Shown here: positions 13,769 through 43,900 of the stretch, piece after piece
Layout of the letters: the number at the start of each line of letters is the position of its first letter
How positions within the stretch are numbered: the first letter of the stretch is position 1
NCBI GenBank assembly: GCA_010093705.1
Contig: MU006091.1
Location: 1,736,001 to 1,800,000, forward strand
Direction: 5' to 3'
Origin: Patellaria atrata CBS 101060
Taxonomy: Eukaryota
DNA length: 64,000 nt
Made by a program: the position numbers and the translations under genes
Notes under the pieces: model-generated
The model's database searches: none
What the model was told of the DNA's origin: nothing
Seen by the model: only the letters and a program-made list of their open reading frames with translations

Positions 13769-14704
13769 TCATCGTCTTCTCGTAGAACCAAAACCGGTGC
13801 TTTCATATCTCGATGTTGAAGGGGACGAAGCTCCCCTTGAGGAACCCTCCCCACCATTATCCCTACGTCCACCGCCAAACCAGGAGGATGATGGTTGCGC
13901 GTAAGTCTCCCTAGTATTATTGCTCCTGCCTAGCCCCCTACCAGCCATGTAAGCCGCTCCAGCTCCAGCAGCGGCTCCAGACCAGAATCCAGGCCTCCAT
14001 GACTCTTGCGAAGTAGGTGATCGCGTATATTTTGATCTCGGTGGGAGGTGGTCGTAAGGAGGAGGTGGATCATCGTCGTCTCCACCACCACCACCCGAAC
14101 CTCCACCTCCCCATCTCGGGGCCTGTGGTCCTTGTGGTCCTCCCACTCCGCCATTTGGTTTGAAGAAGGCTAAATATACCATCCATGCAGCCACCGCGAA
14201 GAACAAAATCCAGAACAACACGCCTATTAATCCTGCACTCCCTTCATCGCTGTCTTGAGATTTCTTTCCCCAATTCGTCCATTTGCGTCCGTACTTTTCT
14301 TCCCCTTTTTCTGTCAAGACCAGTCGATATTCGACGCCACAGCTCCCCTTTAAGACGTATGGATCTTCAGGTGAATCGTAGCCCTCGCAGAACACATCCG
14401 TACTACCCAACTTGAATTCCTCGGGAAGACTGGCTGTGCAGGTCCATTGCACATTATCATCATCGTAATCCGAGCCACTGTTGGTGCATCGCATGACATC
14501 GACTTCGTAAATACCCTTCGCAGAACCACCGACACATTGGAGTTGGGGGACAGCGGGGACGCGACGATGCGAGGTCTTAAGGCCTTTGCGGAGAGTGAGG
14601 GTCTTAATATTGGATAGAAGGACACTATTTGACGGTTTGCGTGCGGCCGAGGATGGAGTAGTGTGGAAAAGCAGGATAAGAGGGAGGACGTCGTGTAACT
14701 GCAT
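13769..14704 (-). CDS. Store-operated calcium entry-associated regulatory factor (SARAF/TMEM66, DUF1183)
   Basis: Signal peptide, TSHRRVPAVPQLQCVGG, QWTCTASLP, FCEGYDSPEDPYVLKGSCGVEYRL, one TM helix, a PPPPY motif and the C-terminal STGFGSTRRR. Confidence 0.9.
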   Translation of the reverse strand: MQLHDVLPLILLFHTTPSSAARKPSNSVLLSNIKTLTLRKGLKTSHRRVPAVPQLQCVGGSAKGIYEVDVMRCTNSGSDYDDDNVQWTCTASLPEEFKLGSTDVFCEGYDSPEDPYVLKGSCGVEYRLVLTEKGEEKYGRKWTNWGKKSQDSDEGSAGLIGVLFWILFFAVAAWMVYLAFFKPNGGVGGPQGPQAPRWGGGGSGGGGGDDDDPPPPYDHLPPRSKYTRSPTSQESWRPGFWSGAAAGAGAAYMAGRGLGRSNNTRETYAQPSSSWFGGGRRDNGGEGSSRGASSPSTSRYESTGFGSTRRR

Positions 14705-15772
14705 TTTGGTAGGACTTGGGTAGTTCTACTGTACTATGATGTGAGAAAAGAAGGTTTTAATGCAGAACATGAATTTCGCATCTTTGGGGAATGAGGACAC
14801 GGTTGTCTTCACGCGTAAGGCAATTTTTTTTTTTCGTGAGGCAAGAATCTTTCATGACCACAACAATGACCTCAGAGCACGTTGGTTTTGCCGAGCATTT
14901 GCGAGCTTTATTTCCAACTTCAACCTGCTGTTCTTGCAAAGGTATCATCACAACCTAATACGTACTTCTTGTTATTCGTAGCTGATCTGTTACGATATAG
15001 AGAAAGCAGAAGTTTTACCAGTTCTAAAGTAGGACTGTAGGAGTGTTTGTTGATTTCATACTTCCAGCTCTACCTTCAAACAGCATATCTATTTTATTAT
15101 CATTATACGCAATTTTCGCACGAGATTCAGTCGGCCTGATCTGGATCCTTGTATTGTATATCCATTCTTGTAGTATCACAACTTGGAGCTAAAGACAGAT
15201 TCTTATTTTTATCCATACCCCTTGCTCTCAATCTATCTGTATATCAACCCCACCTTTGAATAGCCCGTTCCCCCATGCTATTCGAATATACCCCGATCTT
15301 AATGTCTTCATTTTTGAAAATACGACTTCTCATAAGATGTTCGATTGACTATAATCCCTGAAATTTCATGATGCGGGGAAGCGAGAGTCATATCAAGCGG
15401 CTGAGGTGTATCTTACCGACAGCACACCGCACTTGGATTCGTCTGAGGCTCTAATGGAATTCGAATAGATTCAGAGAATATGTAGCTCCCGGTTCTCCTG
15501 TCGACGGCTCAAGGCATTCCATCAATCTACAATTTTACTGGTGGAGAATCTGCACGAGGACACTTGCGATTCGTTTTCTAAGCGCATCCAGTTTGCGAAC
15601 AACTACAATACCAAGACAAATATATTTTGTAGGTATCGTCCACCCGATATGAATTTGTGCCGTTCGTCCTTCAATGCGACTTTTACCGAGAACACGCAAT
15701 GGATCCTGAAGCGGTACTCGTACTTATAACTGGTTCTCTCTACATAGTCAATGGGTGGCTAAAGCCGATTGA

Positions 15773-17817: not shown

Positions 17818-18600
17818 ATGCCCGCTACTCGTCATCACGATAGTGGCCATACCGTGACCACTACTTGCAAAGAACCTTATCCGAACCCCGAAACGTCCAA
17901 AGCGTCATCTACCAAAGAGGACAAGGAAAATGATGGTCCTCGTCAAGGACGTAATGGTATATCGGGAGAGAATGATGTTAAGGCTAGAACGAGGGGAAAA
18001 ACTACTTCAACCTCTAGCGACGGAGCTTAGAAGCGTCCTAATTTGCCGAAAAATTATCTGAGTATTGAATTAGAGGAAATCAATGGAGAGATTCCCGTCT
18101 ATGAGACGGTAAGTATCATAATTATCTCTCATATAGCGGGTTGGATGAAAAGGATACCGATCTTAGTGATACACCCAGGCTACCATCATACGACGCAAGC
18201 TGAACAAACTCCTTACAGACAAACCCCTATTCTAGTAATAGACAAAAAGTTTAATAAGAAAACGATGTTGGAGTAAATGTTATTTCTCTCTGAACGTCAT
18301 CATCATGTTGAAACGGCGAACAAGACATGGAGTCCAGGACCAGGAGCAAGATCTTTGGATAAGTTCCTCAAAGCGTCCGGAACAATGGGAGGGGCAGATA
18401 GCAAAGCATATTACTGGGGTAATATACTTCTTGAGGAGCTGAGGATCTGGAATGGTAACGCGAAAACGAAGGCTCGCCTGGATGCAGAGAAGGTGTATTT
18501 CTTCTACATATACGCAATGTCATCCACTTTACAGCTGCGTACTGACCATTGTTCCTTAGATTCCCGGTAGGACGTCTAAGGGTTGATCCCAAACATATGA
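17818..18600 (+). pseudogene. Fragmented conserved fungal hypothetical protein
   Basis: Protein-like pieces (YLSIELEEINGEIPVYET; FLKASGTMGGADSKAYYWGNILLEELRIWNG..KTKARLDAEK) separated by in-frame stops (TAG at about 18028). Confidence 0.35.
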
Positions 18601-19321
18601 GGAAATTGTGTAAGAAAGGAGACCCTAGACACTCATTAGCTGAAATGTCGAATTTGAAACGTTAATAAGACATAATGAGTAGTTTTAGCCATTAGAAATA
18701 CTTTTGTTCCTCCTCCAAAGCTTACTATGATCGTGTTCCCACATATAACGCATCGGTTGTGAGAAAGGCGATCAGGATAATTCAATAGTTGGATTGTCAT
18801 TTCTCTTGATTAGAACTACAATATCTATGTTATTATCCGTCAGAGGTGAAATTGCGATACTACCAAGATCTCTTCTTCCCTTCCAGTTCGAGTCTAACCC
18901 TGGCTACCTTAGTTATCATTTTTCATGCAACGAAAATAGCTTCTTCGCATGATGTGAACGCGTAAAGCTATCTGGAAATTTTCCCGGTTCTTGCAGTCTA
19001 CTGGTAATTCTAATCGTGACTTGCGCATATATGGAACCTACGTCAAAGATTCCGTGAAAAGTTGTAGAAAGTAATTAATTAATGGTAGAGTATGTAAATA
19101 GTACAGGATGAAGACAGTATTTGGAACAGATGGTTAGGTTGCAGTTGGTACTAGTCCTAAGGTAGTTGGCTCCTGAAATCTTCATGGCGGGAGTGCATCT
19201 ATCTACCTTATACCTCAGTTAAAAGGCGACAATACTTCCGGTGGTCTCTCCTTTCATTTACTGTAAATCCGGTGGCTTATAAGGTAATTTCTAGTTCTGG
19301 TTCTACCGTAGAACTCTCGAT

Positions 19322-20728
19322 ATGCCCCTCCGCGAATGCGACCTCATATTTCCAGAACTCTCGACCGACTTCTCGACGACCCTGCACTCGCTCAAACGTG
19401 CAGCGCTCTCTGTACATAACCGTCTGAATTCTATCGCAGCCGACGCCGTATTCGTCTCCCGTGTTGCTGATGCTTACAGCCTGCCCCTGATTGCAAACGA
19501 ACGGTGCGGTAGTTGGTATATCCCCCCAATTCGGAAATCAGGGAGCGCCTACTTCAAGAGCACGGATGGACATACAGGGCAATGGGCGTTTAGCACGAGG
19601 AGACTGAACCTCGGTGTCTTGGAGATAATTGGGAAGAACGACGGTTGTGTCATCGTAGATTCCACGAGAAGGGGGAAGAGCATGCCGGATGCATTATCGA
19701 AGACAGTGCCGATATGGTGTGCAGTTTTGAATAAGGTGCTATTCCCCGGTATCTCGGATTCGGGGAATGTGCAAACCCCTCCTGGAGTTGTTTCACCATC
19801 TGAGCATAACCAGATCGAAAACAAGATGATGGAATTTGTAGAGAGCTTTCAACTACTGGAATTAGACGTAAAAGGCCTGAAAGAGAAAGTCTGCAAGCCA
19901 TTACACCCTCTCTGGGTTACCCACGATTCTACCTTGCCGTCTCTACCCCCAAAGTTCCATAATTTCCATCCGGTCGTCCTTTGTACCTCTTCCCCAAAGA
20001 TTGTCGGAGGTGAGATATCGGAAGGAGGCTATATCCAGGGCGCTGGTGATGATAGTGAGAGTTGGGCCTGCGGTCTTACTGCCCCAATCTTCTGGAAACA
20101 CAGGGAACTCTTGTTGACTACCCCAGAGGAACACCTTCCTTCGGTCATCACTTCGTTGGTTCGGATGTCTACCGTAAAGATCACGACATCCGATATTGTT
20201 GCGATCAAGCATGCTCCTTGGTTGTTCATAGGGTCGGACACCTGTCTTGATGGACTACAAGCCCACGATCCTGGTATGGTGTTGCATTGCGCAGAAAGTC
20301 GATCGAAGGAAGCAGCTGAGTATCTTAAGGGGCGATATCTCTTTCTAAACTGCAGGAGAGGTAAGTTGGGAAGTCGAGATCTGCGTCAACAGTTACTCAA
20401 TACGAAGGCCTTGATGGACTCTTTAGTCCAACAGCCATTCTCCCCAAAAGTATTTATCTGCTGTCCTACCGGTAATGATTTGGCCGTTGGTGTTGCATTA
20501 GCAGTTTTATGTCTCTATTCCGATAGTCAAGGTACTGAAATCTTCCCCCTTAGGATTAAATACGGAATTTCATGATCTTTAGGCAACCGAAGCGTTTCTC
20601 CATCTAGTCTCATAGACAAAGTATACGTTCGCAAACGTCTAAGCTGGATTGTGTCATCGAGAGAACAAGCCAATCCCTCAAGGGCTACGCTGCAGTCCGT
20701 GAACGCATTTCTCATGAGCTCAGGGTGA
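19322..20728 (+). CDS. RIT1: Initiator tRNA A64 2'-O-ribosylphosphate transferase Rit1; intron at about 20532-20583
   Basis: LIANERCGSWY, YFKSTDGHTGQW, VDSTRRGKSMPDALSKTVPIWCAV, YIQGAGDDSESW, and the C-terminal NPSRATLQSVNAFLM. Confidence 0.93.
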
Positions 20729-26670: not shown

Positions 26671-28964
26671 AAGTATGGTTCACGTCGTGCACGGCCCCAC
26701 TCTGTGCACAGTGATCCCAACCAACAGTATGGGTTTTGAATAACTAATATCTCCACAACGAGTCCGTTCAGCTTCAAATTTGGTGTTGTTATAGATTAGA
26801 TAGTAATAAATAAGACTAGCTACTACTCATTGTCAATAAATCGCGCTGGTGCTTTGCGCGTGCGTTTTTGCCTCAAATTGCTCTCACCACTATCCTGAAC
26901 TTGAGTAACTGGTGCAACAGCCCTAACACGCTTTGTAGGCACTGGAAATACTCCATTTAAGATCTTCTTACGTTGCCGTGACTGTCTGATATTGCCAATT
27001 AGTTGTTGTTGAGCTTGACGAGCTTCTACTGCACTCTCTCGAGCAGCTGCGCGCTCCTGTGCCTCCTCCTCTCGTCTCTTTTTGTTATCTTATCTCTCTT
27101 TTTGACGAGCAGCAAGTAGTGCTTTCTCATATTGATTCCCATAATCTCTCTAACTTTGCTTGATACTTTTCAGTCGCAATATACTCCTTTTCGAGGTCCT
27201 AGTCAACTAATAGCTGTTTTGTGCCACGGGTTAGACCCGATAGGTATAAGTGCCCTTGGATGATCCAGCGGCTTAGTCATACTGTACTTTAGCAGAACAG
27301 CATATGCTGTCTCAACACTTTCTTTCCTTAAGTTTAAGCTTCATTTACATATAGCAATATACCTTGCAGCTTCCATCTGAGGTTGAGCCTTGACATTTTG
27401 CAGCAGCCACCTTTGAGAGGTGAATATTTGAGCAAATCCATCCTTCTTCAACCTAGTAGTCTTAAACAGGGGCTTCTGCCGTTTTCTCTTCTTCATCTCG
27501 TTCTGAAGAGACTCTCTCATGCCGTTTTACGTGCTGACGTAATATGGAAGTCTCGGAAGTGATGGAAAGAATCACGTTATCTAGGCGCTTCGTTCTCTTG
27601 TCTGAAAAGTCGCGATAGACCACCTTAAGAAGCCTCTCTATCTTCCTCTAATCAGTGTTACTAATAAATGACGCCTATAAATCTGCTGAGCAGGGTCTGA
27701 CACCTTCTGGAGTGGTTGGGAGGTTGAAAACCTTCAAAACAACCGTCGGATTGAAGGGATGTAATCCCGTTTTTACCCATCCTGATAGTATGGTCTTTTC
27801 AGCAAAAGCGTTTCGGAAAGCAGGCCAGAGTAGACGGAAGAAGTCTCGTTTTGTAATACTGCAAAGTCCCTCGGACTTCCTCGTGAACTCCTCTAGGTTC
27901 TACTATAGTAGTGAGCCAGGGGCTTAAATAGAGAGACATCTAGAGGCCGTACACGGTGGGTTGAGTGCGGTGGAAAGACTGCAATCAGGATTCTGTGTGC
28001 CAAGGCAAAATTAATGAATTTCATTATGACGTGAGATCCGTGTCTGTCGAGTATCAAAAGTCTCCACTCCCTGAGTCCAGCTGGCTTCGGTTTGGGTTTA
28101 AATACTCGAGTCAACCACTCAAATCCGACGTCGTCATTAGTTCATCCAGTTGGAGTAGACGTTAAAGACCAATTGTGGGTCCCTACGCTGTAGTCTTGTA
28201 GCTAGGAGTCTTCGATATCTCCAGATATTGCTTCGTATATTAGAGTCGGATCCAGAACTCGTCCGTCAGCACAAATAGCAGCAAGCAACGTTATCCACGA
28301 TCTACTGCAATCTTGCTGTATATTCTTCATTTGCCCTGATTCTCAAGCTGTTTTGGAGAAGTATCTTTGCTGGTTTTTGGACTATACCCATTAAAATGCC
28401 CTTCTCATCCATATTCCAAAAGTTGACGAATTTGATCTAATGATGCTTAGTCTTTTATGCAAAGAGCTCACAATATAGCGCGTAGTAGTAGGGGGGAGAT
28501 TATGGCTTTTTCCTGTTTTATTCAATCCAGTCAGATATTTAGATTACAAGATTTTGGAATTTCTCTTGACCCAGCGGCTGGACCAGTTTCTTGACGGCTC
28601 TCTCTTAGCTATTTCTGCTGCTTAGGTCTGTACTAAAGCTGGTATAGGCGCAAGTCCTTAAATAGAGACTTTATTAATATATTTAACGAGGAATTTAGAT
28701 TGGGATTGATTTAGGAATACCTTAGCTTTGTTCGCAACTTCTATAGACTTAGTAATATGCCTCCAGCAACGCGACAGCGTGGATCTTTCAAACTCCATAT
28801 TTCTTTGCCATATGGCTGATATTAGGGGCAATTGTCTATTCAGATTATCAACAGAGAGCTTAATAGCACTCATATTGGTGGAGATATTTAATTTTGAAGT
28901 AACAGTATAGTTTTATGGGATCGTGTGCAAGGGGGTGGGGCCGTACACGACTTGGACCATACTT
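26671..28964 (-). mobile_element. Degenerate pogo/Fot1-like (Tc1/mariner, DDE_1) DNA transposon with about 49-bp imperfect TIRs
   Basis: Transposase fragments WNMDEKG and WRLLILDRHGSH...FPPHSTHRVRPLDVSLFKPL. Left TIR 26671-26719 (AAGTATGGTTCACGTCGTGCACGGCCCCAC...GATCCCA) matches the reverse complement of 28916-28964 (AAGTATGGTCCAAGTCGTGTACGGCCCCAC...GATCCCA). Confidence 0.88.
27222..27395. mobile_element. Solo LTR (about 174 bp) nested in the pogo element
   Basis: TGCCA...TGACA termini with a TTTTG TSD on both sides (27217-27221 and 27396-27400). Inverted homologue at 57360-57531. Confidence 0.88.
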
Positions 28965-30015: not shown

Positions 30016-32077
30016 TCAGTCCAATTCATAGTCAAAATTATCCTGAATATATTTCACTTTCTCCAAGAGATCTTCACGCGACACCCTCGATATTACCGAA
30101 AAGTATGCAATCCACCAGAGAGCAGTCGCTGCGGGCCCTTCTAATACGTCACCTCTTCTCTTTCTACTGTAGTAGTCGACAACATATTCTTTCATATGCC
30201 CGTGTTTTTCCAGAAATTCTTTTGCTGCATCCGCTGACTTCATCACGCCTTTCTTGTCTTGCTGAATTATCATCACCGAGAGGTGGAATTGAGCCCCGTT
30301 CATGAACGGCTGCGAAAGGGCTTTGATGCGGGCATCCTCGACGTCGCCAATTGCCATGAGCATGCGAAGACCGTAATAGTCAACGCCATATGTGAGAAGG
30401 ACGGCTAACGACTCCAAGTATCCCGGTGGCCGTGCGTTTATTTCATGAAGATAGACTTCCGGTGCCTGTTGAGGTGTTTTGACTTTAGGCCTCAAGTCAC
30501 GACAGTGAAACGCATCGCCGCTTTGAACCCCGTATTCGACGCGCGAATTTCGCACACGGGCCTCGCAATGAAAGACACCAGACTCAAAACCTTGTCGACG
30601 GATTGAGTCTTGAAGGTGATCGCGAAGTGCTTTAATCTCATCTTTTGGTAAAGCAGAAGGCATAACATTTTGCGTCTCTTGGAAGTTGGCTCTCCATCCA
30701 GCGCCGGCCATATCGGCTGGGCTTGGGAAGTCATCGTTTATCTCGCAAAACAGAATTTTGTCCTTCCATATTACCAAATTCGCGTCCACTTCCGGACCGT
30801 CAACATATGGCTCAATGACTACTCTGGTGCTAGGCTTAGCCGCGGTTGCGTGTCGATCTGAAGCCTTGTGCACCGCTACCGATAGTTCTTGTCTATTGTG
30901 TACCTTAGATACACAATCGCTACACCAGCCTACAACGGGCTTGACGACCCGTGGATAGCTGAGGGATCTGCCCGCCTCCTTGTGGTCTGGAAAGAAATCA
31001 TCGAGCTGGTCGGCGCTCTCCAGGATGAAACTCTCAAGCTGAGTGCGACCCCCACACTCGTTCATTCTTGTTTTACCTTTATCTCCTGCAGTCTCATATG
31101 CAGACGGAGGTTCCGTAGGTAGATGTTGTGAAATACAAGCTTCAGCCACTCCCTCCAAACGGACATCGCTAATTGTTACAATACCATCTATAGGCTTAGG
31201 GTAAGAACGAACTGCGAGAGCAACTCTAGTCGCGAAAGCTTCGTCTGGAGTGATGTCTACTTCAACAAAGTCCTCGCGTAGGTTTGCCCATGGAGAATTA
31301 GGATCCTGAAGCCAGTGACCTCGTTCATCCAGGACTACAATCTTAATGCCTAGAGCACGCGCGGCCTTTAACGCTCTCTCAATACTCTCGATGTCTTCTC
31401 TACCCTGAACCCAAGCGATGCGCCGGGGTGAGATCATTTGTGGTAGTAACCACGGAAACGAGAGACGATTCTTTAACTCTAAGCCGAGGGCTTCTGCTGA
31501 TACAGTGGGAGAACGAACAATTGCGCCCATTGATTCGGAGATTCCATGTTGGAGCATGGCAATAATGTTTGTGTTTCGTTGAACCCGTCCTACCTCTTGA
31601 AGTGGCTCAAGGAAGGACTTCACCTCAGCAACGCACGTGCAGTACTCAAGACGTTGCTCCAGAAAATCAGATCTCGCGACGAAACCAAAAATCGATGGAA
31701 AGAGAAAATGGATCGCAAGATCGCCTGCATCAGGCGTACTCATGAGTTTATCAATCGTGGATGATAAAAAGGACGCCTGAGGTGTTCTGATTTTCTCAAG
31801 ATCAATTAGATTAGGGTTCTCTACACCAAACGATGTGCTACTAGGTCGGAGCCGGATATCCAGTGACCAGATAGTGTCCAAATCGATACCTTGAGCATCG
31901 GATGATCCAGATAGTTCAAGATATGCTACATACGAGCAATGTTGTCAGCGAGGTTTGGTAGGAAGATATATAGGTATGTGGAACATGAACGAAGAGATGA
32001 CGAGAAAAATGTTACCTACCTATTCTTTTGGAACTTCTAATTCGGACCAACCTCGTTTCATCATCTACAAGAGCCAT
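30016..32077 (-). CDS. ATP-grasp ligase (L-amino-acid ligase/carnosine-synthase-like; similar in type to fungal secondary-metabolite ATP-grasp enzymes); intron at about 31926-32019
   Basis: Open 621-aa frame plus an in-frame first exon (MALVDDETRLVRIRSSKRI|AYLEL...). Motifs DKGKTR, VVKPVVGWCSDCVSKV, VIEPYVDGPEVDAN, FHCEAR and HEINARPPG. Confidence 0.88.
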
Positions 32078-32990
32078 GATGTTTTTCTTTTTTTTTTTTC
32101 GTTTGGATTATCCTCCTCGACCAGCGCGATTGCCACGAACAATTATGGCGGTGTTATGGTTCGGGCTGCTCTGAGACTATAAGGCAACTACGGCAGCTAC
32201 TCGGATATTTGTTGGTAGGTGACCACTTCATCCACAATACCCAATGTCGACTGATGAGGTATATTTAGGCTCTCCAATCCGACAGCACCAAAGCAACTCT
32301 CTTCGATTTATTTCGGATCTACGCGCCTTGGACTGCAATGCCGTCAACTAGGCTAAGTTTATTACCTTCCTGTTCCACTCAGTCCATGATTACTCTCACT
32401 CCTTTTACCCGTACTACCTATCACTTTCCCTTCTAGGACGACTTCGGATCTCATAAGCTTCACAGATACGTGCACATATTCAAAAGCCCCAAGGACGCCA
32501 CATGCTTGGCTGCATTTGGTGATGCATATCCAGGGTTGATGCGGCAATCTAGAGACCATCAGGGCCGAGAGCAAGTATGAGACAATAATATCTCTCCTCC
32601 GTAGACCAGAACAACAGCGGGTAGAAATGCTGCTACATTCATAGATTGCGTCGTATACAGGTAGGTCAGGTGTTAGAATCCTTCTAGTTCATGGCCGAAG
32701 GTGAAGGTTGCCATGGCTTCCTAATAACGATTCGGACCTCTAGCTATTCTTTCATTTTATGATTTCCTCATCAAGTTATTTTGTAGGACTACATTCAAGT
32801 TTGGGCTACTTTGAGGTGGCGACTGACGTACAAGAAGGGCTTCAAATACCATGATGGCTGCCTCACACTACATACTGGGAGCTTATGTACTTTTTTTTAT
32901 AGCTTTAAAGAATCTTTCCTTTATCTGAGCGCCTCTTCTTGCGCTCCAGAAGATTGCCTGCAGTAAAGAACACCGAAACCTTCACAAAAG
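32078..32990. promoter_or_regulatory. Bidirectional promoter of the ATP-grasp and cysteine-synthase-like genes, with repeated TCGGA elements
   Basis: Head-to-head ATGs 913 bp apart. CTCGGATATTT at 32200-32210, TTCGGATCT at 32312 and 32443, TTCGGACCT at 32731. Confidence 0.55.
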
Positions 32991-35157
32991 ATGGCCGCTA
33001 GCAATCCACTTAATGTCTTTAGAGGGCCAAATTCCATGGCTCAATATTTTGATCCTGATCAAAACCCCCCTCTTCCTCTTGTGGAGATTCCTGCCGCTCT
33101 GAATCCCTTACGAAAAGATGGAGTTCGCATATATGCGAAGATGCTTACGGCCTTACCAGCTCAGAACGTCAAGTCATTGCCAGGTACGTCTCATATCGTC
33201 AGCTTTTTCTGCCTCAAACCCTAATTCAATGACGTCGCCCTGAATCATACTTTTCCTGAGATTTTGTCTGTCTGACCTGCGATTACAGCCCTCAACATGC
33301 TTCTTCACGAACCAGAAGCGGCACGTAAAACTATCGTAGAAGCAAGCTCAGGCTCTACTGTCCTCTCCCTTGGTATGATTTCGAGAGCGCTCTGGGATAA
33401 CGAAGACGTTGTAGCCCATGTGACAAATAAGAAGCATGTGGACTCATTGAGATTACTGAGATTTTTTGGACTAAAAGTGTAAGATGGAGAGTCTGGCGTA
33501 GTCTTAGCTGGGTTGTGATCGACTAACTTATACTAACCTGAATAGATCGCTTTATGGTGGTCTTGCGCAACAGGAACCGCAAGACCCCAAGGGGATCATG
33601 AGTCGGCTCAGAGCACTGGCCTCCACTAACCCTGGTGTCTGTTATCCCGGACAATACGATAACATCTATGTTGGTAGTCTCTGAGATTGTTTAAAGTACA
33701 TGAACTAACAGAGACGGGACAGAACTGGAAATCGCACGAACAATGGACTGGCGCTCAAATATGGAAACAACTACCGGAAATTGATGTTTTTTGTGCCACG
33801 ATAGGTACAGGTGGTGAGTGAGAGTAAAATGCTATATCTATATGCCTCGTTGATTTTTGTCCTATTAGGCTGTGCGACAGGAACAGGAGTCTACCTGAAG
33901 TCTAAAAAACCATCAGTCAAAGTCGTAGGGTAAGCGCTTCTTCTTTACTTACCCTATGGGATATAGACCATCAAATAACATAATGATTCAGGGTCTGTAA
34001 TGAATTCGGAGATCCCACACCAGGTCCTCGTCACTTCCCGGGATTCGAAAGCTCGCAGTTTCCATGGCGGGAAACAATTGATGTCTTCGAGAGCGTAGCG
34101 TCTTGTAACGCCTACCGCAGTTCGATGAACCTTTGCCGGTACGGCATTATCGCAGGTCCTTCATCTGGAGAAGCACTCCATGGCATTCTTGCTTACCTTA
34201 GAAATGTGAAGGAGGAGGGTCGGCTTGCCGAGCTCGCTAACCCGAGCACGGGAGAGATCTCTTGTGTCTTCATCTGCGCCGACCTCCCATATCAATACAT
34301 GGATATGTACTTCAAGAAACTAGGGGACGAAGAGTTTCCCCCTATATATAATAAGGTACGTACCAACTTAGCCAATGATCATCTTTGATCGCAGGCTGAC
34401 TGAATGGTGATCCCGGTAGTGTCTGCTGGGGTGCGACCTTGACCCATATGATGAACGTTGGTTTCTTTCGCCAGACCAGGTTGCTGCCCTCATCTCACAC
34501 GCTTCCAACACTTTCAGAAGCGAATCCTACTCCACCTATACTAAGGAATCTTTACTAGTGTCCGCTACTACATTGTCCTCAGTTTCAAGCGCGAGTAGCG
34601 TATCAACTAGCTCTTCTCATCCCTCCATGTCGTCCTCTTATACGTATTTGCCCTCCATCTATGGCTTGACGTACTGGTCACAATCCGATATCCTCACAAT
34701 CATTGACATTCGGAACGCGGTGGCGTACACCAATTCACATATTAGAGGGTCATTAAATCTCCCATTACCGGATATCAAGAAAGACCTCTTCGGCGTTGCG
34801 GATTCTGTGAAGAAGCGATGGCTCGAACTGAAGGTAGCTTTGGAGGAGAATGCGTGGATGTGGCGTAAGTATAAGAACACTGGGGACGCCGGTAGAACCG
34901 GCGCTAAGACAGACAATGGACAACCTCGTTTGGTTTCGGAAACCATTCGAAATTCTCCAAAGAAGGTTATTCTATTTGTCTGTCAAGATGGCGACACAGC
35001 ACGCATGGCCACAGCCATGCTTAGGGCAGAGGGATGTGAGGCTTTTTGTGCTGATGGTGGGTATGATATGCTCTCCACTTATCTGCAGAATCAGAAAGGG
35101 TTGGCGAATATTGTGGATGGGCAATCTCAACTGGAAAAATCAAGCTCTGCTTCATAA
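32991..35157 (+). CDS. PLP-dependent fold-type II cysteine-synthase-like enzyme fused to a C-terminal rhodanese domain (about 8 exons)
   Basis: RIYAK...NVKSLPA (PLP Lys), IVEASSGST, GQYDN..NWKSH..WTGAQIW, IGTGGCATG and IIAGPSSG. A phase-0 intron at 34356-34419 joins in frame, through a Ser-rich linker, to IIDIRNAVAYTNSHIRGSLNLP...FVCQDGDTARMATAMLRAEG..ADGG. Confidence 0.85.
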
Positions 35158-36330
35158 CGATGTATGCCCAACTGAGATAAATTTCCCAAAGTTCCGAAAA
35201 TAAAAGGAGACGAGCATAAAGACGTCACTAATGTGAATGATGCTTCCCGCTCTATGCACCTCTTTCATCCAATCAGACCTATTGATTTGTACTGTACGTT
35301 ATTAGCCGCTCAGTAGTTGAATATGAATACGATGAACAAAAAGAGATTTTGACGATTACAAATTACGACGAAAAGTTTCAGGTACTCCGTAGTTCGACCG
35401 TGTAGAACTATAGGTACAAGGGGAGTTTTCAATTCATCTAATCTTATCTCCTGCTAGAGCCACCCCCTTGTAGGTAGACTTTTTACGGTATCTTGGCCAT
35501 TTTCTTTTTCGCACTTGGCGGAGAGCAAGTTTTTCTGCGGGAGGCATAGAACTAACAAAACATAATCACAACGTAGAAGACACCAATAATAATATATTAA
35601 GCGCTGCAGTAGACCTGCAAGAATCATTCTCATAGTCTAATGGTACATTTATCCTTTATTAGAATTCAGTCTCACTAGTTCTAGAATCTGAGAGGCTCCT
35701 ACTATAGTACTGCGTACATCTGGCTATTTGCTTCCTTCCTTGTCCAAGTGATCGAATTTTTAATCTTGATCTTTTCGCGTATCGCACGAATTACTTGTTG
35801 ATAGAAGCGCGATATTGAGTATGTTTGAGCAAGATCCCCAATTAGTAGTGCAGAAAGAAAGGACAGTGCTATGTACACCTTCCATACTCTGTACAACTAC
35901 CCCAACATCTCGCATGTATCCGGCAAATATTGTCGCTCACAAATCAGTTCTGGACACTTTAAGTCGGTGAGAATGATACTACTTATACGCATGTAGTAGA
36001 GTCGAAAAGAGGGATATCCCGACTGCCAAGTTTGCCTTCGTTGCTCAGGTACTGTGGCTAAGGCACTTGAAGCACTTATACCGATGCACCATCATGGTAT
36101 TAACTTCAAGGACCGTGATGTCCTGCAGTGGAGGTTTTTTTTTTCTTTTGCCTCATCTTCTAACGCAGTTATACCATTTTGATTCTTTTTCTTTGCTTGA
36201 TTACCCCGAGACCCGTAAAGTATTCATCTTGCCCCTTTTTCGGTCATGATGGAACCTAGGTAAGTTACCCTTTGAAATCACAGGTAGAGCAAGTGCTGAA
36301 TCATATTCGAGAAAGGAGGTTGTCATAGAA

Positions 36331-38438
36331 ATGAAGCAAGGCGCTTCCATAGATGTCCTTCTGGACTCCTCAGATGCCAGCGATGTACCTAAAGGATACA
36401 AAACCTCCGCGCAGATGCGCAGAACAAGCACAAGCATTGATTCAGGATCAACACTGAGACCTGCCACCGATCAAGAAATTGCAGACCTACCGCATGTAAT
36501 CGACCGCATTCCGTTCGCGGTCTGGGCCGTTATACTCGCTGGTGCCGCCGAACGGTTCACATATTTCGGGTTGATCGCTCCATGGCGTAAGTCAGAATCG
36601 CGAGAGACCAATGTATACGAAGCTGAATTAGATCCTCAGAGAACTATATGCAGAACCCTCGTAACGATCATGCCGTTCCCGGAGCGCTTGGATTGGGCCA
36701 ATCCACGGCCGTAAACATCTACAATGCTTTCTTCCTCTTCTCCTTTATGACTCCAATGTTCTTTGCTGTTGTCTCGGATAGTTGGCTCGGCCGTTACAAG
36801 ACGATGATGATCGGTTTGGGGTGAGATATGGATATGGACTTCAGTCAAGGGCCAGATGAATTAATAATTTCTTGCTAGGTTATATATTTGTGGTTGTGTC
36901 GTCCTTGTCATAACCTCTATCCCACTAGCTCTTGACCGAGGCGCGGGTCTAAGCGGTCTCATCGTAGCTATGCTGTTCGTAGGATTGGGGGTCGGAGCGG
37001 TCAAAGCTACCTTTTTCCCTTTTCTAGGTTTTACTTCCGTGCTACCAACCTACATTTGCCCACTGACGCCAAAAAAGGGGATCAATATGTCCAGCGCCCG
37101 CCGCAGTTTTTGCAGCGTAAGAATGGCGATATGGTGATCATAGATGGCCCGAGAACATTACAGTTCATCTACAATGCTTATTACTGGTCAGTGGTTAATT
37201 CATCTGTCTCTCTCCTGTGCAATATGTTAAAAATGTGTATTAAGGGCTCTAGGTTTACCAACATTGCTTCACTATCGTCCATCCCTGTAACGTTCTTAGA
37301 AAAGAAGTACGACTTTTGGACAGCTTATTTGCTTACTACAACGTCCCTTTGTCTGGCACTGGTGTTATTCGTTCTGTGGGTTGGAAGACTTGGTGAGTAG
37401 TGCAAATCAATGCCAAAGGGGCCAATTACTTACTAAAGTTTGCTTCTTTCTTACAGAGAAGCTCTCGCCGAAAGGTAATATCCTTCCCCAAGCATTCAAA
37501 ACGATTTTTTGTGCCATGAAAAGCGGATGGAAGTTCGACCATGCGAAGCAGTCATACCAAGAATCCTGCTACGGCAGGATAGTCTTATGGAACGATGATT
37601 TTGTCGAGGAGATGAAACGCGGTTTCATTGCTTGTCGCGTCATGTAAGTAGAGTATGATTATTTGGTTCTAGGTCAAACTTAAGCTTATGAACCATTTTC
37701 AGATTTTCCCTCCTTATATTCTATTTGTGCATAAATCAAATGTACAATAACCTTGTCTCTCAGGCTGGGCAAATGAATCTCATGAATATTCCCAATGACA
37801 TGATTCAAGCATTCAACGGAGTGGCCTGTATCATCTTCGGACCTATCATCCAAGCACTATATAACTTGCTGGCCAAAAAGAGGATCATCTTTGGACCAAT
37901 TGCACGGATTACTGTCTCCTTTGTATTTTGCGGAGCAGGGATGGCATACGCAGCGATTGTTCAGAAAGTTATATATAGCAAACGACCATGCTATGACCGA
38001 CCTTTAGCTTGCCCTGCTGCGAACGATGGAACAATCCCTAACGATGTCAGCATCTGGATACAGATACCTGTGTACTTCTTGCTTGCTATAGCGGAGATTT
38101 TTGGCTTCGTCACGGCGTTCGAATATTCGTACAGCAAAGCTCCACGGGAGATGAAGGCAGTCGTCCAAGCACTCACACAGATCACAGCAGGATTTGCTAG
38201 CTTGATAGGTATGGGTATAAGTCCGGCTGCAAAGGACCCAAATATGGTGGTTATGTACTCTTGTTTGGCTGGCGCAATGGCGTTGTCTGCAATAATTTTC
38301 TGGCTGGTTTTCAGGACATACGACCAAGTGGATTCTGAATTAAATCAACTTGACGTCCGAGAACCGGTATTCGCGCTGGAAGATTCTGAAAGCGCTCGTG
38401 ACACAGAGGAGTCTAAAATTTCTCGGGATGAAAAGTAG
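36331..38438 (+). CDS. POT/PTR2-family proton-dependent oligopeptide transporter (multi-exon; an upstream micro-exon at about 36247 is possible)
   Basis: AGAAERFTYFG (ExxERFxYYG variant), NYMQNP...PGALGLGQ, SDSWLGRYKT, GDQY, QMYNNLVSQAGQM, and FEYSYSKAPREMKAVVQA. Confidence 0.9.
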
Positions 38439-38731
38439 TACTGTTTGTGTCCTAAGGTGCATCCAAATATAGTATATAGTTGTGGTTCACGGTCAGTTAA
38501 AGATGATCGAGAAATCCCTAAATCTGCTGTTGCAGATATCATCCCACGCACTTTGAAAGATGGTCAGCGTAAAATGCTTTGTAAGCTGGACCTTTAAACA
38601 CGTCGTAGGAATGCTATGTAGAAACATACCTTATCTGTTCCCCTGAAATATCTGCATGTCCCTGCATTCCTATGTCTAGTTGAACAGTCGAACTGCACCA
38701 CCCAAGACGTGAGACCAGCAAGGTAACTCCT

Positions 38732-38742
38732 AAATATCCGAG
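38732..38742 (+). promoter_or_regulatory. Candidate shared cluster regulatory motif AAATATCCGAG
   Basis: Identical 11-mer, in the same gene-relative orientation and about 125 bp upstream of the ATG, in the promoters of both the methyltransferase and the ATP-grasp gene (32200-32210). Confidence 0.45.
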
Positions 38743-38867
38743 GAAATATGCTCACCGGGGGGAAAGTCCTAAGCGGACGGATGAGCAGGTTTCTGATATA
38801 AATACCCCTCCCGTCCTCCTTTCAAGACTCAACTCCACGCTCCATCTGGCATCAACCATCTAGAATC

Positions 38868-39620
38868 ATGGAACCATCCAATCATGCAATCTCTCAATAC
38901 TCAAGCACTAGTGAGAGACTTGCTGTTCGCCTTGCCATCCACAATTACAACAATTATTCCCAAGGGTGGTTTGCTTGGGCGGGAGAACGACTGAACAAGA
39001 CTGGCGACGTACTTGAAGTTGGCGCAGGCACAGGAGAGTTATGGCGCAATACAGACCGCTCAGGAGCGCGTCTGACGCTTACCGACTTTTCTCCCGCTAT
39101 GTGCGAAGAGTTGAGAAAGTTACCGAACGCAACTGTACGCCAGTGCGATGCCACCAGCCTACCATTCGAGAATGAAAGTTTTGACTCCGTTATTGCGAAC
39201 CACATGCTCTATCACGTGGACGACCCTGAAGCAGCGTTAAAGGAATTTGCTAGAGTGCTTCGTCCGGGCGGCCAGCTTGCTGTCGCCTTGAATGGACGCG
39301 ATCATCTCGACGAGCTGCTCGGTATCGGAGAGCTGGTGGGACGGCCGAGCCAGATACGAGACAAAGCACATATTGCCGCCGAGACTGCCCCCGGACTTAT
39401 TGGAAGGTATTTCGAAGATATTGTTTCAGAACGCTTTCCCGGAGCGTTTGAAGTCCCAACACCACAGCCGATCATAGACTATCTCAGCAGTTTGGATGAT
39501 GAGCCATTAAACGCCGAACAAAGGGAAAAAGTCCTGAAAGTTGTTGAACCCAGAATCGCTGCGGATGGAGTATTCAAAGTCAATAAGAATATGGTACTCT
39601 TTACTGCTCGCCGTCAGTAA
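38868..39620 (+). CDS. Class I SAM-dependent methyltransferase (Methyltransf_11-like), intronless
   Basis: DVLEVGAGTG (motif I), LTDFS, CDATSLPFENESFDSVIANHMLYHV, and RVLRPGG. Confidence 0.88.
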   Translation: MEPSNHAISQYSSTSERLAVRLAIHNYNNYSQGWFAWAGERLNKTGDVLEVGAGTGELWRNTDRSGARLTLTDFSPAMCEELRKLPNATVRQCDATSLPFENESFDSVIANHMLYHVDDPEAALKEFARVLRPGGQLAVALNGRDHLDELLGIGELVGRPSQIRDKAHIAAETAPGLIGRYFEDIVSERFPGAFEVPTPQPIIDYLSSLDDEPLNAEQREKVLKVVEPRIAADGVFKVNKNMVLFTARRQ

Positions 39621-40192: not shown

Positions 40193-40992
40193 TTAGTTTC
40201 CACCTGTCCATACCGCCGGACCAGGATAGGGATAGCTTGAGAACGAAGTGTACAAATTGAATCGAATGCCAGCGTCGGTTCGCTTGTAGAGACTGGTTCC
40301 AGCGACACCTCCGGATGGAGATGCAGAGCCACTACCGGCCACCCTGAGGTTAAGGCACTGCGGATATGCTTGGGCCCCATCGTCGTTGACACCTCCATGT
40401 AGAGCAATAATTTCGTGACGAATAACATAGTTGCCGGCTTTGAGGTTCCTTGGAAGTATTGTGCTTGATGTGAAGTTCTTCTTGATCAGTTCGTCGGTTA
40501 CCCAAGTATTACCACTAATGAATCCACTTTGGCTGATTTTTGTCCATCGAAGATTTCCCGGTGATTGAGAGGTGCATTCACCTGCAGCAAGAATATCAGT
40601 TTTAGAACAGAGAGATTCGACCATTAGTACCCACCGTTGCATGGAGCAATGTAGTTAATAATAGGACCTTTGTGGGAATCGGGCCAAGTATTCCAGTAGA
40701 ATTCGATGTTGTCTCCAGCTTTAGCGTCGACATAAGCCTTCCCAGCGGTTGCACTCTTGTGGCAGTTGATATCGTTGCTCTGGAACGCGCTGGGAGAAAT
40801 GAATCCCAAATCCTGATTCAAAGAATCCCATCCCGCAGTCACCGGTTTACTGTTCGCGGGATGGTAATACCACACCGGATCGGAACCGGCTGTCCACTGG
40901 CCATTTACCTTGACACCTCGGACAAAGCCGTGAGCCGCAGCCTTGTCTAGGATTGAGGCGGTCAGCGCCAAAAGAATCAAAGAAGAATACAT
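40193..40992 (-). CDS. AA9 (formerly GH61) lytic polysaccharide monooxygenase without CBM; intron at about 40583-40632
   Basis: Signal peptide ending AAA|HGFV (His1), DINCHKSA, WPDSHKGP, YVIRHEIIALH and AQAYPQC. Confidence 0.93.
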
Positions 40993-43900
40993 GACCAGTA
41001 TACAAACAGGATGGAAAATTGATCGTCGTGATGTACTGCCGCGCTGAAATGCATGGAGCAAACGGTTTTCCACGCCTCTGCCCCTTACTTATATAAAAGT
41101 TCCACTACGACATGACCAGGAAGCGTTGTCCCGTGATACTGTAGTATATTATCGAAAGTTACTGGCCCTAGACCTTTTAGAGACCGGAGCGACATTTTGG
41201 AGTAGTTTGAAGGAAGGTTATTCGTGGCATTCATTATCCAAGGCTTAGCGGAGTTGAGATTTCGAGCGAATGGCCGCTTGAACAAGAATGCTGAGAATTT
41301 CTGAATATTTCCCAAGCATTGATGGCAAGGGAAAGTCGATTGTTAGGGATGTTCTTCCGTAGATATACAGGACGCGAGGAAAAAGGAGGAATCGTGGGGT
41401 TAAGCTTAAACACAAAACGGTCGTAGTCTGGGAGCACAGACGCGAAACCGTTCCCGGACCTGCCGACTTTAATATAAATAGATGAACGTCCCCCACAAAC
41501 TCCGCAATATCATTCCCCTTCTTCCCAAACGAACAATTTCTTGAGCAACCTTACCGCCCCGGTTTCCAGCTTTCCAGAATTTCCAGGACGGGAGCGAGTG
41601 CAAGCGACTGTAAGCGATCATAAGGAAGCGATCGTAAGCCTCCATCACTACTGTAGGCTATTATTCAGCATCTTTAGGTTCACCACTAACTTTTTCCATT
41701 GTTCGATATCTCGCTGCTAGATCTCTTGATGCGGTATGTTCCTGGCAAACCTCATGGAAGAGCGGGGAGCGAGCCGTGGATGTACGCTTTTGTGATCCAG
41801 AAGGACACCACAAGAAATCGTGTACTGGACGTCCTACAAACTTTCCGCGGATAGGAAGTGTGAATGTGAGTTCAAGAGAGCCAAAGTGATATTCCAGATC
41901 TCTGGCACAGATGGTATCCCGCCCTACCTACGATTGATGGCGCACATCATTATGATTAAGTGATTTAAGTCGTGACCCGGGCCTTTCATTGGGTACCTTA
42001 GACGTATATGTTCTACGCAATATAATCTGAGATGCTCCGAAAACTTAGTCTACGGAATGGTAATAAAGACATCCCATACCATGAGACATCTCTTTTCTCA
42101 AATCCAAGGCTTGAGGGAGAGGCGCACGAACCCCTTTTTACGAACAATCGCCACATCACATATGAGGTGGAATATCCAAACAAGCATACTGGATTACCTT
42201 CGCAGTGCAGCTACGGGGTTTCATTACTACATGCGAAAGCAAGAACTATCAAGTGCAACAAGCGATCATATCCTTGTTGTTTTGCAGAAGACTGAAAACC
42301 GGCCCCACTAAATTCCACGAATAGAGGATTATATACCAGCTTGATCGTTCCAACAATGCTATTGAGCTTAAACACTTACCAACGGATGGCAGCAGGGTGG
42401 GTGTAGTTAGCCAAGCAATCGTCATCGAGCCTACTCCCACAGCCATTTCTTACCACGTGGGTACGTCAATAACCTTCCATCAGGTAAGTTGTTAGCAACC
42501 AACACGTCTCTTATTTCGATGGTAATCATGTTGATATGTCAATTGGTTGATCAGTTGATTATTCATTAGTCTATGAAAGCCTCATTTGAAATTGCATGGA
42601 GAATGGAGATAAGATAAGTGCATAATAACCCATGAGGCACATTCTGCCAGGAACAGAAGAATTTAGCATATTGAGAAACGGCCACGAAGCCAATAGTCCG
42701 TCCCTAGAAGAGACCATTTCAACCGAAAATACACATCCCAATGCCCTGCACGCGAAGTTTGAGAATCATTAATGAAGAATTGTCCGTTCGTACCGAACCG
42801 TGTACCTGGTTGAATGGAAAGTATCCAGTGAGTGCATCGAAACCTTGGTAACCGGAACGACATACCTGATAATCAAGATCTTTCCTGCCAGAGGCTATTA
42901 TTGTACAAGTCTCATGCCGCATATCACGGAAGCGGTTGACTCCGTCCGTTGTCCCTTGACCATGTCACGAAAACCTTTCCTTAACAATGTCCAACAGGAA
43001 TACTTAGAACGCGCCAATCGTTACCGAGTCTAACAGGACTCTGCAATGAGTGTCGATGAGTCCTGTCCCTCTCGAGCAATAAAGTACTCCTACTATTGCT
43101 GGTCTCTAGCTGGTGGTCTCTAGCTTGACGCTCGTTGTTCTGGAGGAATATCTAATGACATTCAATAATCGCCAAACGGGGCTTGACTGTTGCAGCAATT
43201 TACGGTTGATCTTCTTGTTCACCATAATGAGGTTTAGAGGCCATGAATTCGGTAGAGGATTTGTCCGCGTTTGCTTCCCCGATCGCTAATCCATGGCGGA
43301 AGGGTGAACTCATTTCATCTCTTCTGTACCTAAAGTTCCTGACTGATGGTTATGAGCTGCTTAGGTTATTGAACAGCGAATGGAGAACCACAACGACGAC
43401 ATGTCATTTGCATGATCATTACAGAATATACGCTGCAAGAATCTACGACCCCTTTCCATCTTTAGTCACGCGGAACTTCCTTCACGGTCTTGGGCTGTAA
43501 TTTTAGGTTACTGCCACTGGGAGAGGCTCTACCCTCCGATCTCTTGCACCTTTTTGTATTCTATTCCGTAAGAATATATCAAAAATTGACAAATCGTAAG
43601 GGTGTGCGATAAAGATTCCACAAAATTAGTAGCTTCCGCTTCGAAGCAGCCCTGAGCCCCTGGAGTTGCATCACCGCCTACTTCGTCGGCTTTCGACTCC
43701 AGCTAAGGCAACCGGCCAGCCCTTCTACCGAATTTTTACGCACAAAATCGGACTAATGAGCACATTGATGGCCTTGAACTACGGTATCTAGTTGTTTTAT
43801 GTCCGGTGGTTTGCTTCCGGAAAACACTAGGTATCATATCTTGTCAGGTATATTAAGGCAGTGAACCTTATTAACGGACTTAAACTTTTCAATGTACAAA

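Follow-up and report, generated by a model that had tools for sequence, protein, structure and literature searches.

A conserved gene cluster of filamentous ascomycetes encoding an amino-acid-ligase-type ATP-grasp enzyme, an aspergillomarasmine-synthase-like enzyme and a peptide transporter, with a possible role in copper acquisition

Aspergillomarasmine A (AMA) synthase, whose structure is available both as apo form (8H4H) and with O-phosphoserine (8H4Q), is the closest described counterpart of one of the enzymes encoded by the gene cluster considered here, which lies in a 64,000-nucleotide stretch of the genome of Patellaria atrata CBS 101060 (Dothideomycetes, Patellariales; contig MU006091.1, positions 1,736,001 to 1,800,000; this whole stretch is hereafter called the window). 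The cluster comprises adjacent genes for an ATP-grasp ligase, a pyridoxal phosphate (PLP)-dependent enzyme fused to a rhodanese domain and a proton-dependent oligopeptide transporter (POT). AMA synthase, like the window PLP enzyme, combines a PALP domain with a C-terminal rhodanese domain; it is described as adding O-phospho-L-serine to L-aspartate and as sufficient on its own to produce AMA, a metal-chelating aminopolycarboxylate studied as an inhibitor of metallo-beta-lactamases (PMC8319579). A second characterised member of the family, Fda4, belongs to the fusadapamide cluster of Fusarium poae: it carries a rhodanese-like domain and is reported to condense O-phosphoserine with L-alanine, after which a flavin adenine dinucleotide (FAD)-dependent oxidoreductase frees L-2,3-diaminopropionate (L-Dap); in that report the partners of Fda4 are the FAD oxidoreductase and a nonribosomal peptide synthetase (NRPS; PMC12751119), whereas the partner of the window enzyme is an ATP-grasp ligase and no NRPS is seen. 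SbnA, from the staphyloferrin B pathway, likewise depends on PLP and couples O-phosphoserine with an amino acid on the way to a metallophore; differently from SbnA/SbnB and opine-type systems, the cluster shows no SbnB-like dehydrogenase, no NRPS-independent siderophore synthetase and no nicotianamine-synthase-like enzyme, and an ATP-grasp ligase is found instead. The cluster may also resemble the opine metallophores, such as staphylopine and nicotianamine, and the POT/NPF carriers that transport nicotianamine.

For the ligase, the nearest described enzymes are the bacterial L-amino-acid ligases BL00235, YwfE/BacD and RizA, which share with it a three-domain catalytic ATP-grasp fold; however, identity is limited to 14-22%, and some 170 residues at the N-terminus of the fungal proteins form an additional domain. 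Only few putative ATP-grasp enzymes had been reported from fungi as of 2025 (PMC12568646), and no assayed member of the fungal ligase family was found in the literature. Cp1B, from the E-64 pathway, provides a fungal example of NRPS-independent amide formation by a stand-alone ATP-grasp enzyme; it was considered as a relative of the window ligase and rejected, as it has no detectable Pfam domain, resembles glutathione synthetases and has different partners (PMC12568646).

Small-molecule copper acquisition by fungi is barely known, and isocyanides are presented as its sole candidates (PMC6514546). The described targets of the copper regulator Mac1, named MacA in Aspergillus fumigatus, are Ctr transporters, FRE metalloreductases and the copper-responsive metabolite (crm) cluster (PMC11563359, PMC6514546). 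The regulon thus joins TGCTCA-core promoters, FRE genes and a small-molecule cluster, as would the system described below, but crm is built on an isocyanide synthase, and none of the 16 Mac1-dependent genes of Fusarium oxysporum listed in PMC11563359 encodes an ATP-grasp, PLP/rhodanese or POT protein.

In the window, four adjacent and apparently intact genes, all matched by Pfam, lie where the initial annotation had placed them: the ATP-grasp ligase (30016..32077, minus strand; Pfam matches, with splice sites read from the sequence), the PLP/rhodanese enzyme (32991..35157, plus strand, several exons), the POT (36331..38438, plus strand, six exon frames) and a class I S-adenosylmethionine-dependent methyltransferase (38868..39620, plus strand). 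The first two are divergently oriented and share a promoter, again as annotated; it spans 913 bp between the two ATGs (32078..32990). Scanning of 84 open reading frames across the 64-kb window against Pfam gave no match to NRPS, polyketide synthase or terpene synthase families, so the absence of such core synthases claimed at the outset was borne out. No published description of this gene combination was found in the full-text literature, most subscription journals lying outside the search; the cluster is apparently an undescribed, NRPS-independent one of filamentous ascomycetes. We read it, with a probability of about one half, as a pathway to a small aminocarboxylate peptide that serves metal acquisition, the metal being most likely copper and being released by reduction. 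The further proposal that it represents the first NRPS-independent fungal copper metallophore (chalkophore) system, controlled by Mac1 and equipped with a POT whose proton-coupling motif is non-canonical and a dedicated FRE reductase that the Patellaria lineage has lost, is rather doubtful; if true, such a system would be widespread in Dothideomycetes, Sordariomycetes, Onygenales and lichen-forming fungi.

Ligase, PLP/rhodanese enzyme and POT form a conserved module. The ligase family comprises 238 matches at E<=1e-3, the best of them 62% identical to the window protein, and all named matches are from Pezizomycotina; the PLP/rhodanese family comprises 753 matches. Homologs of the two proteins carry adjacent locus tags in 10 genera (ligase/PLP): Lobaria (MMC22_004899/4900), Myotisia (FQN57_000253/252), Parahypoxylon (AAE478_002261/2260), Neonectria (QQX98_006347/6346), Polytolypa (AJ80_00722/721), Monosporascus (DL765_002223/2222), Humicola (VTK26DRAFT_8976/8977), Corynascus (VTI28DRAFT_569/568), Fulgogasparrea (Q9201_004384/4383) and Venturia, with V. 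effusa (FKW77_001470/1460). These genera presumably span Lecanoromycetes, Eurotiomycetes, Sordariomycetes and Dothideomycetes. Furthermore, 34 of the 120 listed PLP matches lie on a contig exactly as long as one bearing a ligase match.

The same arrangement is seen in metagenome contigs. Those with a ligase alignment (35 loci, L001-L035) were searched with the window proteins; in L001-L017 the ligase is 41-60% identical to that of the window, and since L011, L012, L014 and L015 are near-copies of one another, these loci represent 14 lineages. Ten loci have more than 0.7 kb of upstream sequence; in eight of them (L002, L005, L008, L009, L011, L012, L014 and L015) the PLP/rhodanese gene stands head-to-head with the ligase, with 0.8-1.3 kb between the two matches, L013 and L017 being the exceptions, and a POT of the window type recurs beside the ligase in five (L002, L007, L013, L015 and L017). 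The initial annotation had named conserved co-localisation in unrelated genera as the check on its proposal and the POT as a partner, and both are upheld by these data. In L018-L035 the ligase is 30-46% identical to the window protein and none of the PLP, POT and methyltransferase partners is present; these are paralogous ligases. Those of L018-L032 make up a family 31-36% identical to the window ligase, and have no PLP, POT or FRE neighbours. In the ligase tree all 22 PLP-linked rows fall into one clade of 36 (99* support), outside of which are placed the ligases of L013 and L017. In these two loci (L013:4230-9027 and L017:3940-11878) ligase and POT are found together with no PLP or FRE gene in view, and in L017 a frame for a GNAT acetyltransferase adjoins the POT gene; the ligase/POT combination may be an older or a recurrent pairing.

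A further gene accompanies the cluster in many of its relatives. Pfam scanning of the other frames of the loci revealed a membrane protein of the ferric-reductase type (Ferric_reduct plus NAD_binding_6, about 765 amino acids) next to the cluster in L002 and L015, and a search of all loci with these two proteins placed an FRE gene beside the ligase in 10 of the 17 loci, corresponding to 7 of the 14 lineages (L002, L003, L005, L008, L010, L011, L012, L014, L015 and L016). Its usual place is immediately downstream of the ligase; of the loci in which it is missing, most end too soon to tell. The complete set, FRE, PLP, ligase and POT, is present within 9 kb in L002. In the window the usual position of the FRE gene is occupied by a zone of transposon relics; comparison with the related loci suggests that the P. 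atrata copy has most likely lost the reductase, and that it represents a reduced copy of the conserved cluster.

A reductase of this type is connected to Mac1 in Podospora. The ligase homolog of Podospora bellae-mahoneyi has the tag QC761_511980, and would be the counterpart of P. anserina Pa_5_11980, the gene next to Pa_5_11970. The latter is annotated as 'putative ferric reductase transmembrane component' and named PaFre1; its transcripts are given as 26.68 tags per million in the wild type but 0.00 in grisea, a mutant without the Mac1 ortholog GRISEA, and quantitative reverse-transcription PCR is reported to agree (PMC3495915). Strong reduction of Pa_5_11970 is also described in grisea, in ageing and under paraquat stress (PMC5349155). 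The primer for PaFre1 quantification, taken from the paper supplement, has no match in the 35 loci.

The promoters of the cluster point to the same regulator. A de novo search for 7-mers present in at least five of six independent divergent promoters (window 32078-32990, L002, L005, L008, L009 and L015) found three, ATATGCA, ACTTGCT and TGCTCAA, while 100 shuffles yielded 0.43 on average and at most 3. The second and third occur as tandem arrays in L009 and L015, ACTTGCTCAA(G/C)TTGCTCA..., and both match the published Mac1/MacA core. The consensus obtained by chromatin immunoprecipitation sequencing in F. oxysporum is given as 5'-DHNTGCTCANNN-3' and the yeast Mac1 site as TTTGCTCA (PMC11563359), and the site of A. 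fumigatus MacA is reported as TGTGCTCA (PMC6514546). The remaining 7-mer, ATATGCA, has a TGCTCA site some 20-30 bp away in L005:6126, L008:2545 and L015:9356, and is also present at position 32529 of the window; it may be a partner site.

For the published pattern DHNTGCTCA, the cluster promoters hold 28 sites in 20,015 bp versus 41 in the 157,163 bp that make up the remainder of the same sequences (1.40 versus 0.26 per kb, binomial p 4.5e-10), an enrichment of about five-fold, and TGCTCA ranks first among the 180 permutations of its own letters. By class, 10 sites are found in 5,977 bp of PLP/ligase promoters, 9 in 3,616 bp of FRE promoters and 5 in 6,414 bp of POT promoters. The FRE and POT promoters, which were outside the discovery set, hold 15 TTGCTCA or TGCTCA[AC] sites in 10,030 bp versus 0.37 per kb elsewhere (p 3e-5); control promoters are poor in sites, with 2 in 11,872 bp upstream of paralogous ligases (0.17 per kb) and 1 in 13,600 bp upstream of 17 other window genes (0.07 per kb). 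In the window itself, the POT promoter has a TGCTCA core (tctTGCTCAa, 35826..35831, minus strand, 505 bp upstream of the POT ATG) and a second TTGCTCA (36041-36047, plus strand), and two DHNTGCTCA sites (38749, plus, and 38782, minus, spanning 38749..38787) lie between the POT stop codon and the methyltransferase ATG. In L015 the promoter common to one of its methyltransferases (MT1) and the POT has two TGCTCA sites. On the basis of these motifs, control of the cluster by Mac1 in response to copper is predicted.

Thirteen regulatory motifs were also tried on the six divergent promoters; they included SreA ATCWGATAA, WGATAA, Zap1/ZafA motifs, the yeast copper response element TTTGCKCR and PacC GCCARG. 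Neither the Zap1/ZafA motifs nor the strict yeast element were enriched there. The PacC-type GCCARG was found 15 times versus a shuffle mean of 6.9, a count reached by 2 of 300 shuffles, which is nominal only after 13 motifs.

The PLP gene has exons that match PALP and Rhodanese (8.2e-10) in Pfam, and these exons are identical to the NCBI protein P0121 of P. atrata CBS 101060, itself carrying PF00291 and PF00581, except where the P0121 model skips sequence. Two stretches are omitted from that model: about 22 conserved residues (ALNMLLHEPEAARKTIVEASS) ahead of the substrate loop and at its start (window 33225-33340), and 25 residues of the rhodanese part (window 34840-34915). Since both align with the Melanomma ortholog P0122 and with the AMA synthase chain, the deposited P0121 model is probably mis-spliced. 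The PLP-binding lysine in NVKSLP and the SSGST(V) loop, invariant or nearly so in the family, are present in the window exon frames, as is the cysteine of the rhodanese motif FVCQDGD, also nearly invariant in the family.

The Melanomma ortholog P0122 was modelled as a proxy for the window protein (predicted local distance difference test score, pLDDT, 85.8). Its best structural matches are 8H4Q, titled 'Aspergillomarasmine A biosynthese complex with OPS', and 8H4H, titled 'apo structure of Aspergillomarasmine A synthetase', with Z 49 (49.3 for 8H4Q), 45-46% identity and coverage of both PALP and rhodanese parts (residues 1-541); the next match is the O-phosphoserine-dependent CysM, at Z 36. 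The NCBIfam SbnA model matches the PLP enzyme at 1.6e-27, below its cut-off. Sequence comparison gave 367 bits between the window model P0121 and the AMA synthase chains, and AMA synthase scores 429 bits to P0122, 432 to P0204 and 494 to Fda4, which is among the PLP homologs as P0210 ('cysteine synthase fda4 [Fusarium poae]') and is 44% identical to P0122. In the tree of the 120 listed rows a 100* split separates 91 rows, comprising all 34 ligase-linked ones and the window protein, from 29 rows, none of them linked, that include Fda4 and three Aspergillus proteins. Orthology of the window enzyme to AMA synthase or Fda4 thus found no support: Fda4 lies beyond the split and AMA synthase is about equally distant from both sides, being no closer to the window clade than to others, so that the window enzyme is a paralog of these proteins with its own conserved partner. 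By analogy with these two characterised family members, it most likely uses O-phosphoserine and the nitrogen of an amino acid. Both of them make beta-N-substituted alanines from O-phosphoserine, which agrees with the production of an unusual amino acid first suggested for this gene.

The ligase gene was initially visible as a frame of 642 codons (30016-31944, minus strand; ATPgrasp_N PF18130 3e-15, ATP-grasp_4 PF13535 2.5e-11) with no ATG near its start. An intron of 94 nt (32019-31926, GT..AG, with a GTAGGT donor, a CTGAC branch site and a TAG acceptor) restores the frame to an exon 1 of 58 nt (32077-32020, with the ATG at 32077); exon 2 extends over 31925-30019 and is followed by the stop codon (30018-30016), giving a protein of about 655 amino acids whose N-terminus resembles that of the homologs. 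In the AlphaFold model (pLDDT 85.0), the closest structural match to residues 170-642 is the L-amino-acid ligase BL00235 (3vot; Z 35.0, root-mean-square deviation 2.7, 386 aligned residues, 22% identity), which is also the top PDB match by sequence (6.7e-22); YwfE/BacD (Z 28-29) and RizA (Z 27) follow, and identities overall are 14-22%. The N-terminal region of about 170 residues forms the extra domain, without counterpart in the structural match list. E501, N503 and R505 (in EINARPPGY), K335 and E378 are invariant in 25 ligase sequences, and we take them to be the Mg/ATP-binding residues, of the E-x-N-x-R type. The modelled structure thus identifies the protein as an ATP-grasp enzyme of the L-amino-acid-ligase type, in line with its first annotation.

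The transporter is assigned from its last exon, which matches Pfam PTR2 (PF00854) at 4.8e-30, with weaker matches on two other exons; TIGR00926 matches at 1.6e-18, below its cut-off. In L013 and L017 each of the six exon frames of the window gene is matched, and their order is kept. The canonical helix-1 motif of POT proteins is E-x-x-E-R-F-x-Y-Y. At this position (36480-36520) the window protein has AGAAERFTYFG, those of L002 and L007 are identical or nearly so, and L015 has VGATERFSYYA; the general form in the cluster POTs (window, L002, L007, L013, L015 and L017) is (A/V/I/T)G(A/M)(A/T)(E/Q)R(F/L). Compared with the canonical motif, the first glutamate appears to be replaced by glycine in all six, and its lack could alter proton coupling. 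Searching of this short helix-1 exon against solved transporters gave no match.

A pathway can be proposed from these activities. The PLP enzyme would form an aminoacrylate from O-phosphoserine and add the nitrogen of an amino acid to it, generating an N-substituted diaminopropionate, as AMA synthase and Fda4 do. Direct use of this adduct is more probable than its cleavage to free Dap, because the search beside the cluster genes identified no FAD oxidoreductase of the Fda3 type and gave a single weak FAD_binding_3 match, in L011, some 6 kb upstream of the PLP gene. The ligase would then phosphorylate a carboxylate and join the product of the PLP enzyme, or its precursor, to an amino acid through an amide bond, leading to a small polycarboxylate pseudo-peptide. 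The POT carrier would either export this product or import its metal complex, and at the cell surface the complexed metal would be reduced by the FRE reductase. The control sites and PaFre1 make copper the best candidate for this metal. Such a cluster, which lacks a core synthase and occurs in plant and animal pathogens, saprobes and lichens, would escape rule-based cluster finders; moreover, the combination of an aspergillomarasmine-type enzyme with a ligase could yield a new chelator scaffold, and the control sites offer a testable link between the Mac1 regulon and secondary metabolism.

Several observations weigh against metal acquisition, or against copper as the metal. AMA binds Zn, Ni and Co; FRE reductases also serve iron uptake; and no Ctr copper transporter was found in any locus. 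The proposed pathway leaves the rhodanese domain and its conserved cysteine without a role. The window holds no FRE gene or remnant at E<1e-3, and relaxing the threshold up to E 50 gave only noise (best tblastn 0.26). Its divergent promoter, 913 bp long, contains no exact TGCTCA core and one near match, at 32568; similarly, no site is present in the FRE promoter of L008 or in the short upstream pieces of L001, L006, L010 and L016. The core has only six bases and the motif was noticed before the published consensus was looked up, a drawback against which only the independent and control promoters guard. A weak point is also the Podospora correspondence, which derives from tag numbering and not from sequence, and PaFre1 is described as only partly GRISEA-dependent, with copper addition restoring some expression (PMC3495915). 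As for P. atrata itself, its copy has lost the sites of the divergent promoter, and may be regulated differently, use another reductase or be decaying, although its three genes look intact.

The initial annotation had suggested a di- or tripeptide, possibly a Trojan-horse antimetabolite, as the product. An antibiotic peptide of this or another kind is unlikely but deserves consideration; the PLP enzyme would make a toxic or reactive non-proteinogenic amino acid, to be masked by the ligase and exported by the POT, with the methyltransferase serving for tailoring or for protection of the producer. The nearest solved relatives of the ligase include BacD/YwfE, for bacilysin, and RizA, for rhizocticin; enzymes of the Fda4 type are reported to feed L-Dap into peptides (PMC12751119); the patchy distribution of the cluster is typical of secondary metabolism, and the window copy keeps its three genes intact without a reductase. 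However, the methyltransferase is conserved in 0 of 35 loci, Pfam scans of the loci revealed no conserved self-resistance gene, and antibiosis leaves unexplained both the FRE gene in 10 of 17 loci and the Mac1-type promoter sites. Given the reductase in the relatives and these promoter elements, antibiosis is less likely than metal acquisition; the biosynthetic logic of the annotation, an amino acid from the PLP enzyme, a ligase and a POT, largely stands, while the purpose it proposed is less likely and the membership of the methyltransferase is unsupported.

With the same chemistry, the cluster could produce a metallophore for iron or zinc, the reductase freeing Fe(III) or the ligand capturing Zn(II). 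This has a somewhat lower likelihood still: FRE proteins are also ferric reductases, the related PLP enzyme SbnA works in a siderophore pathway, and AMA is reported to sequester Zn2+ (PMC8319579), but the enriched element is the copper-type TGCTCA, and among the motifs listed above the iron and zinc ones gave nothing comparable, with no ATCWGATAA site in the six divergent promoters, 2 WGATAA sites versus a shuffle mean of 5.6, and no enrichment of zinc motifs.

An improbable third possibility would give the rhodanese domain a role: it would feed persulfide to the PLP site, forming a thio-amino acid of the cysteine persulfide or thiocysteine type, then built into a glutathione-like peptide. The near invariance of the rhodanese active-site cysteine and the fold shared with O-phosphoserine sulfhydrylases (CysM, Z 36) are consistent with it, and a glutathione S-transferase (GST)-like gene adjoins the PLP gene in L011 and L015. 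Against it, AMA synthase and Fda4, with the same two-domain architecture, form C-N and not C-S bonds, and the GST gene is confined to one lineage. Finally, that the four genes are unrelated chance neighbours is hardly credible. Neither the methyltransferase nor the AA9 gene that follows it is conserved with the rest, but for the ligase/PLP pair chance adjacency is refuted: their tags are adjacent in 10 genera, their orientation is kept in 8 metagenome loci, and the two gene trees show matching clades.

The methyltransferase is encoded by a single exon and has 250 amino acids (Methyltransf_11 3.2e-25); no NCBIfam model reaches its cut-off. Because no relative was found in any of the 35 metagenome loci (E<1e-5), it is probably a bystander or a lineage-specific addition, by this comparison, rather than the cluster member it had been taken for. 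In L015, where a GST-like gene flanks the cluster, two class I methyltransferases are located on either side of the POT (6067-7107, 14688-15602 and 18470-19441 for the three genes); the window protein is dissimilar to both. Methylation may have been recruited separately in some lineages, as the two sites before the window methyltransferase and the two unrelated methyltransferases flanking the L015 POT would allow. The ten Atlas clusters nearest to this intron-less gene are bacterial (Actinomycetota and Chloroflexota; feature scores 0.98-0.99, template-modelling score up to 0.94), which in itself is no sign of gene transfer.

Directly after the methyltransferase lies a gene for an AA9 lytic polysaccharide monooxygenase (40193-41088, minus strand), read as two exon frames matched by Pfam AA9 at 1.8e-36 and 9e-20. 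Enzymes of the AA9 family are copper-dependent. On the same strand, TTGCTCAA is present some 455 bp upstream of this gene, at 41541-41548; it fails the H position of the published Mac1 consensus.

On the other side, a gene-poor zone extends directly downstream of the ligase gene, with no long frame at 22.3-30 kb and a broken DDE_1 transposase frame (27893..28141, minus strand; Pfam DDE_1 3.6e-12). The contigs of the assembly break at 28.9-29.7 kb, where fragments are of higher depth and repeat-like. No direct or inverted repeats of at least 40 bases were found within 22-47.5 kb of the window. Of the relics and pseudogenes first annotated next to the cluster, the former are supported in part by the transposase frame, the empty zone and the contig breaks, while the pseudogenes were not confirmed. 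Base composition over 22-30 kb is slightly low in GC (0.41-0.44), with a mildly raised TpA/ApT ratio (1.1-1.2), and indices of repeat-induced point mutation over 22-28 kb are raised only mildly; the zone may be old, mutated transposon DNA.

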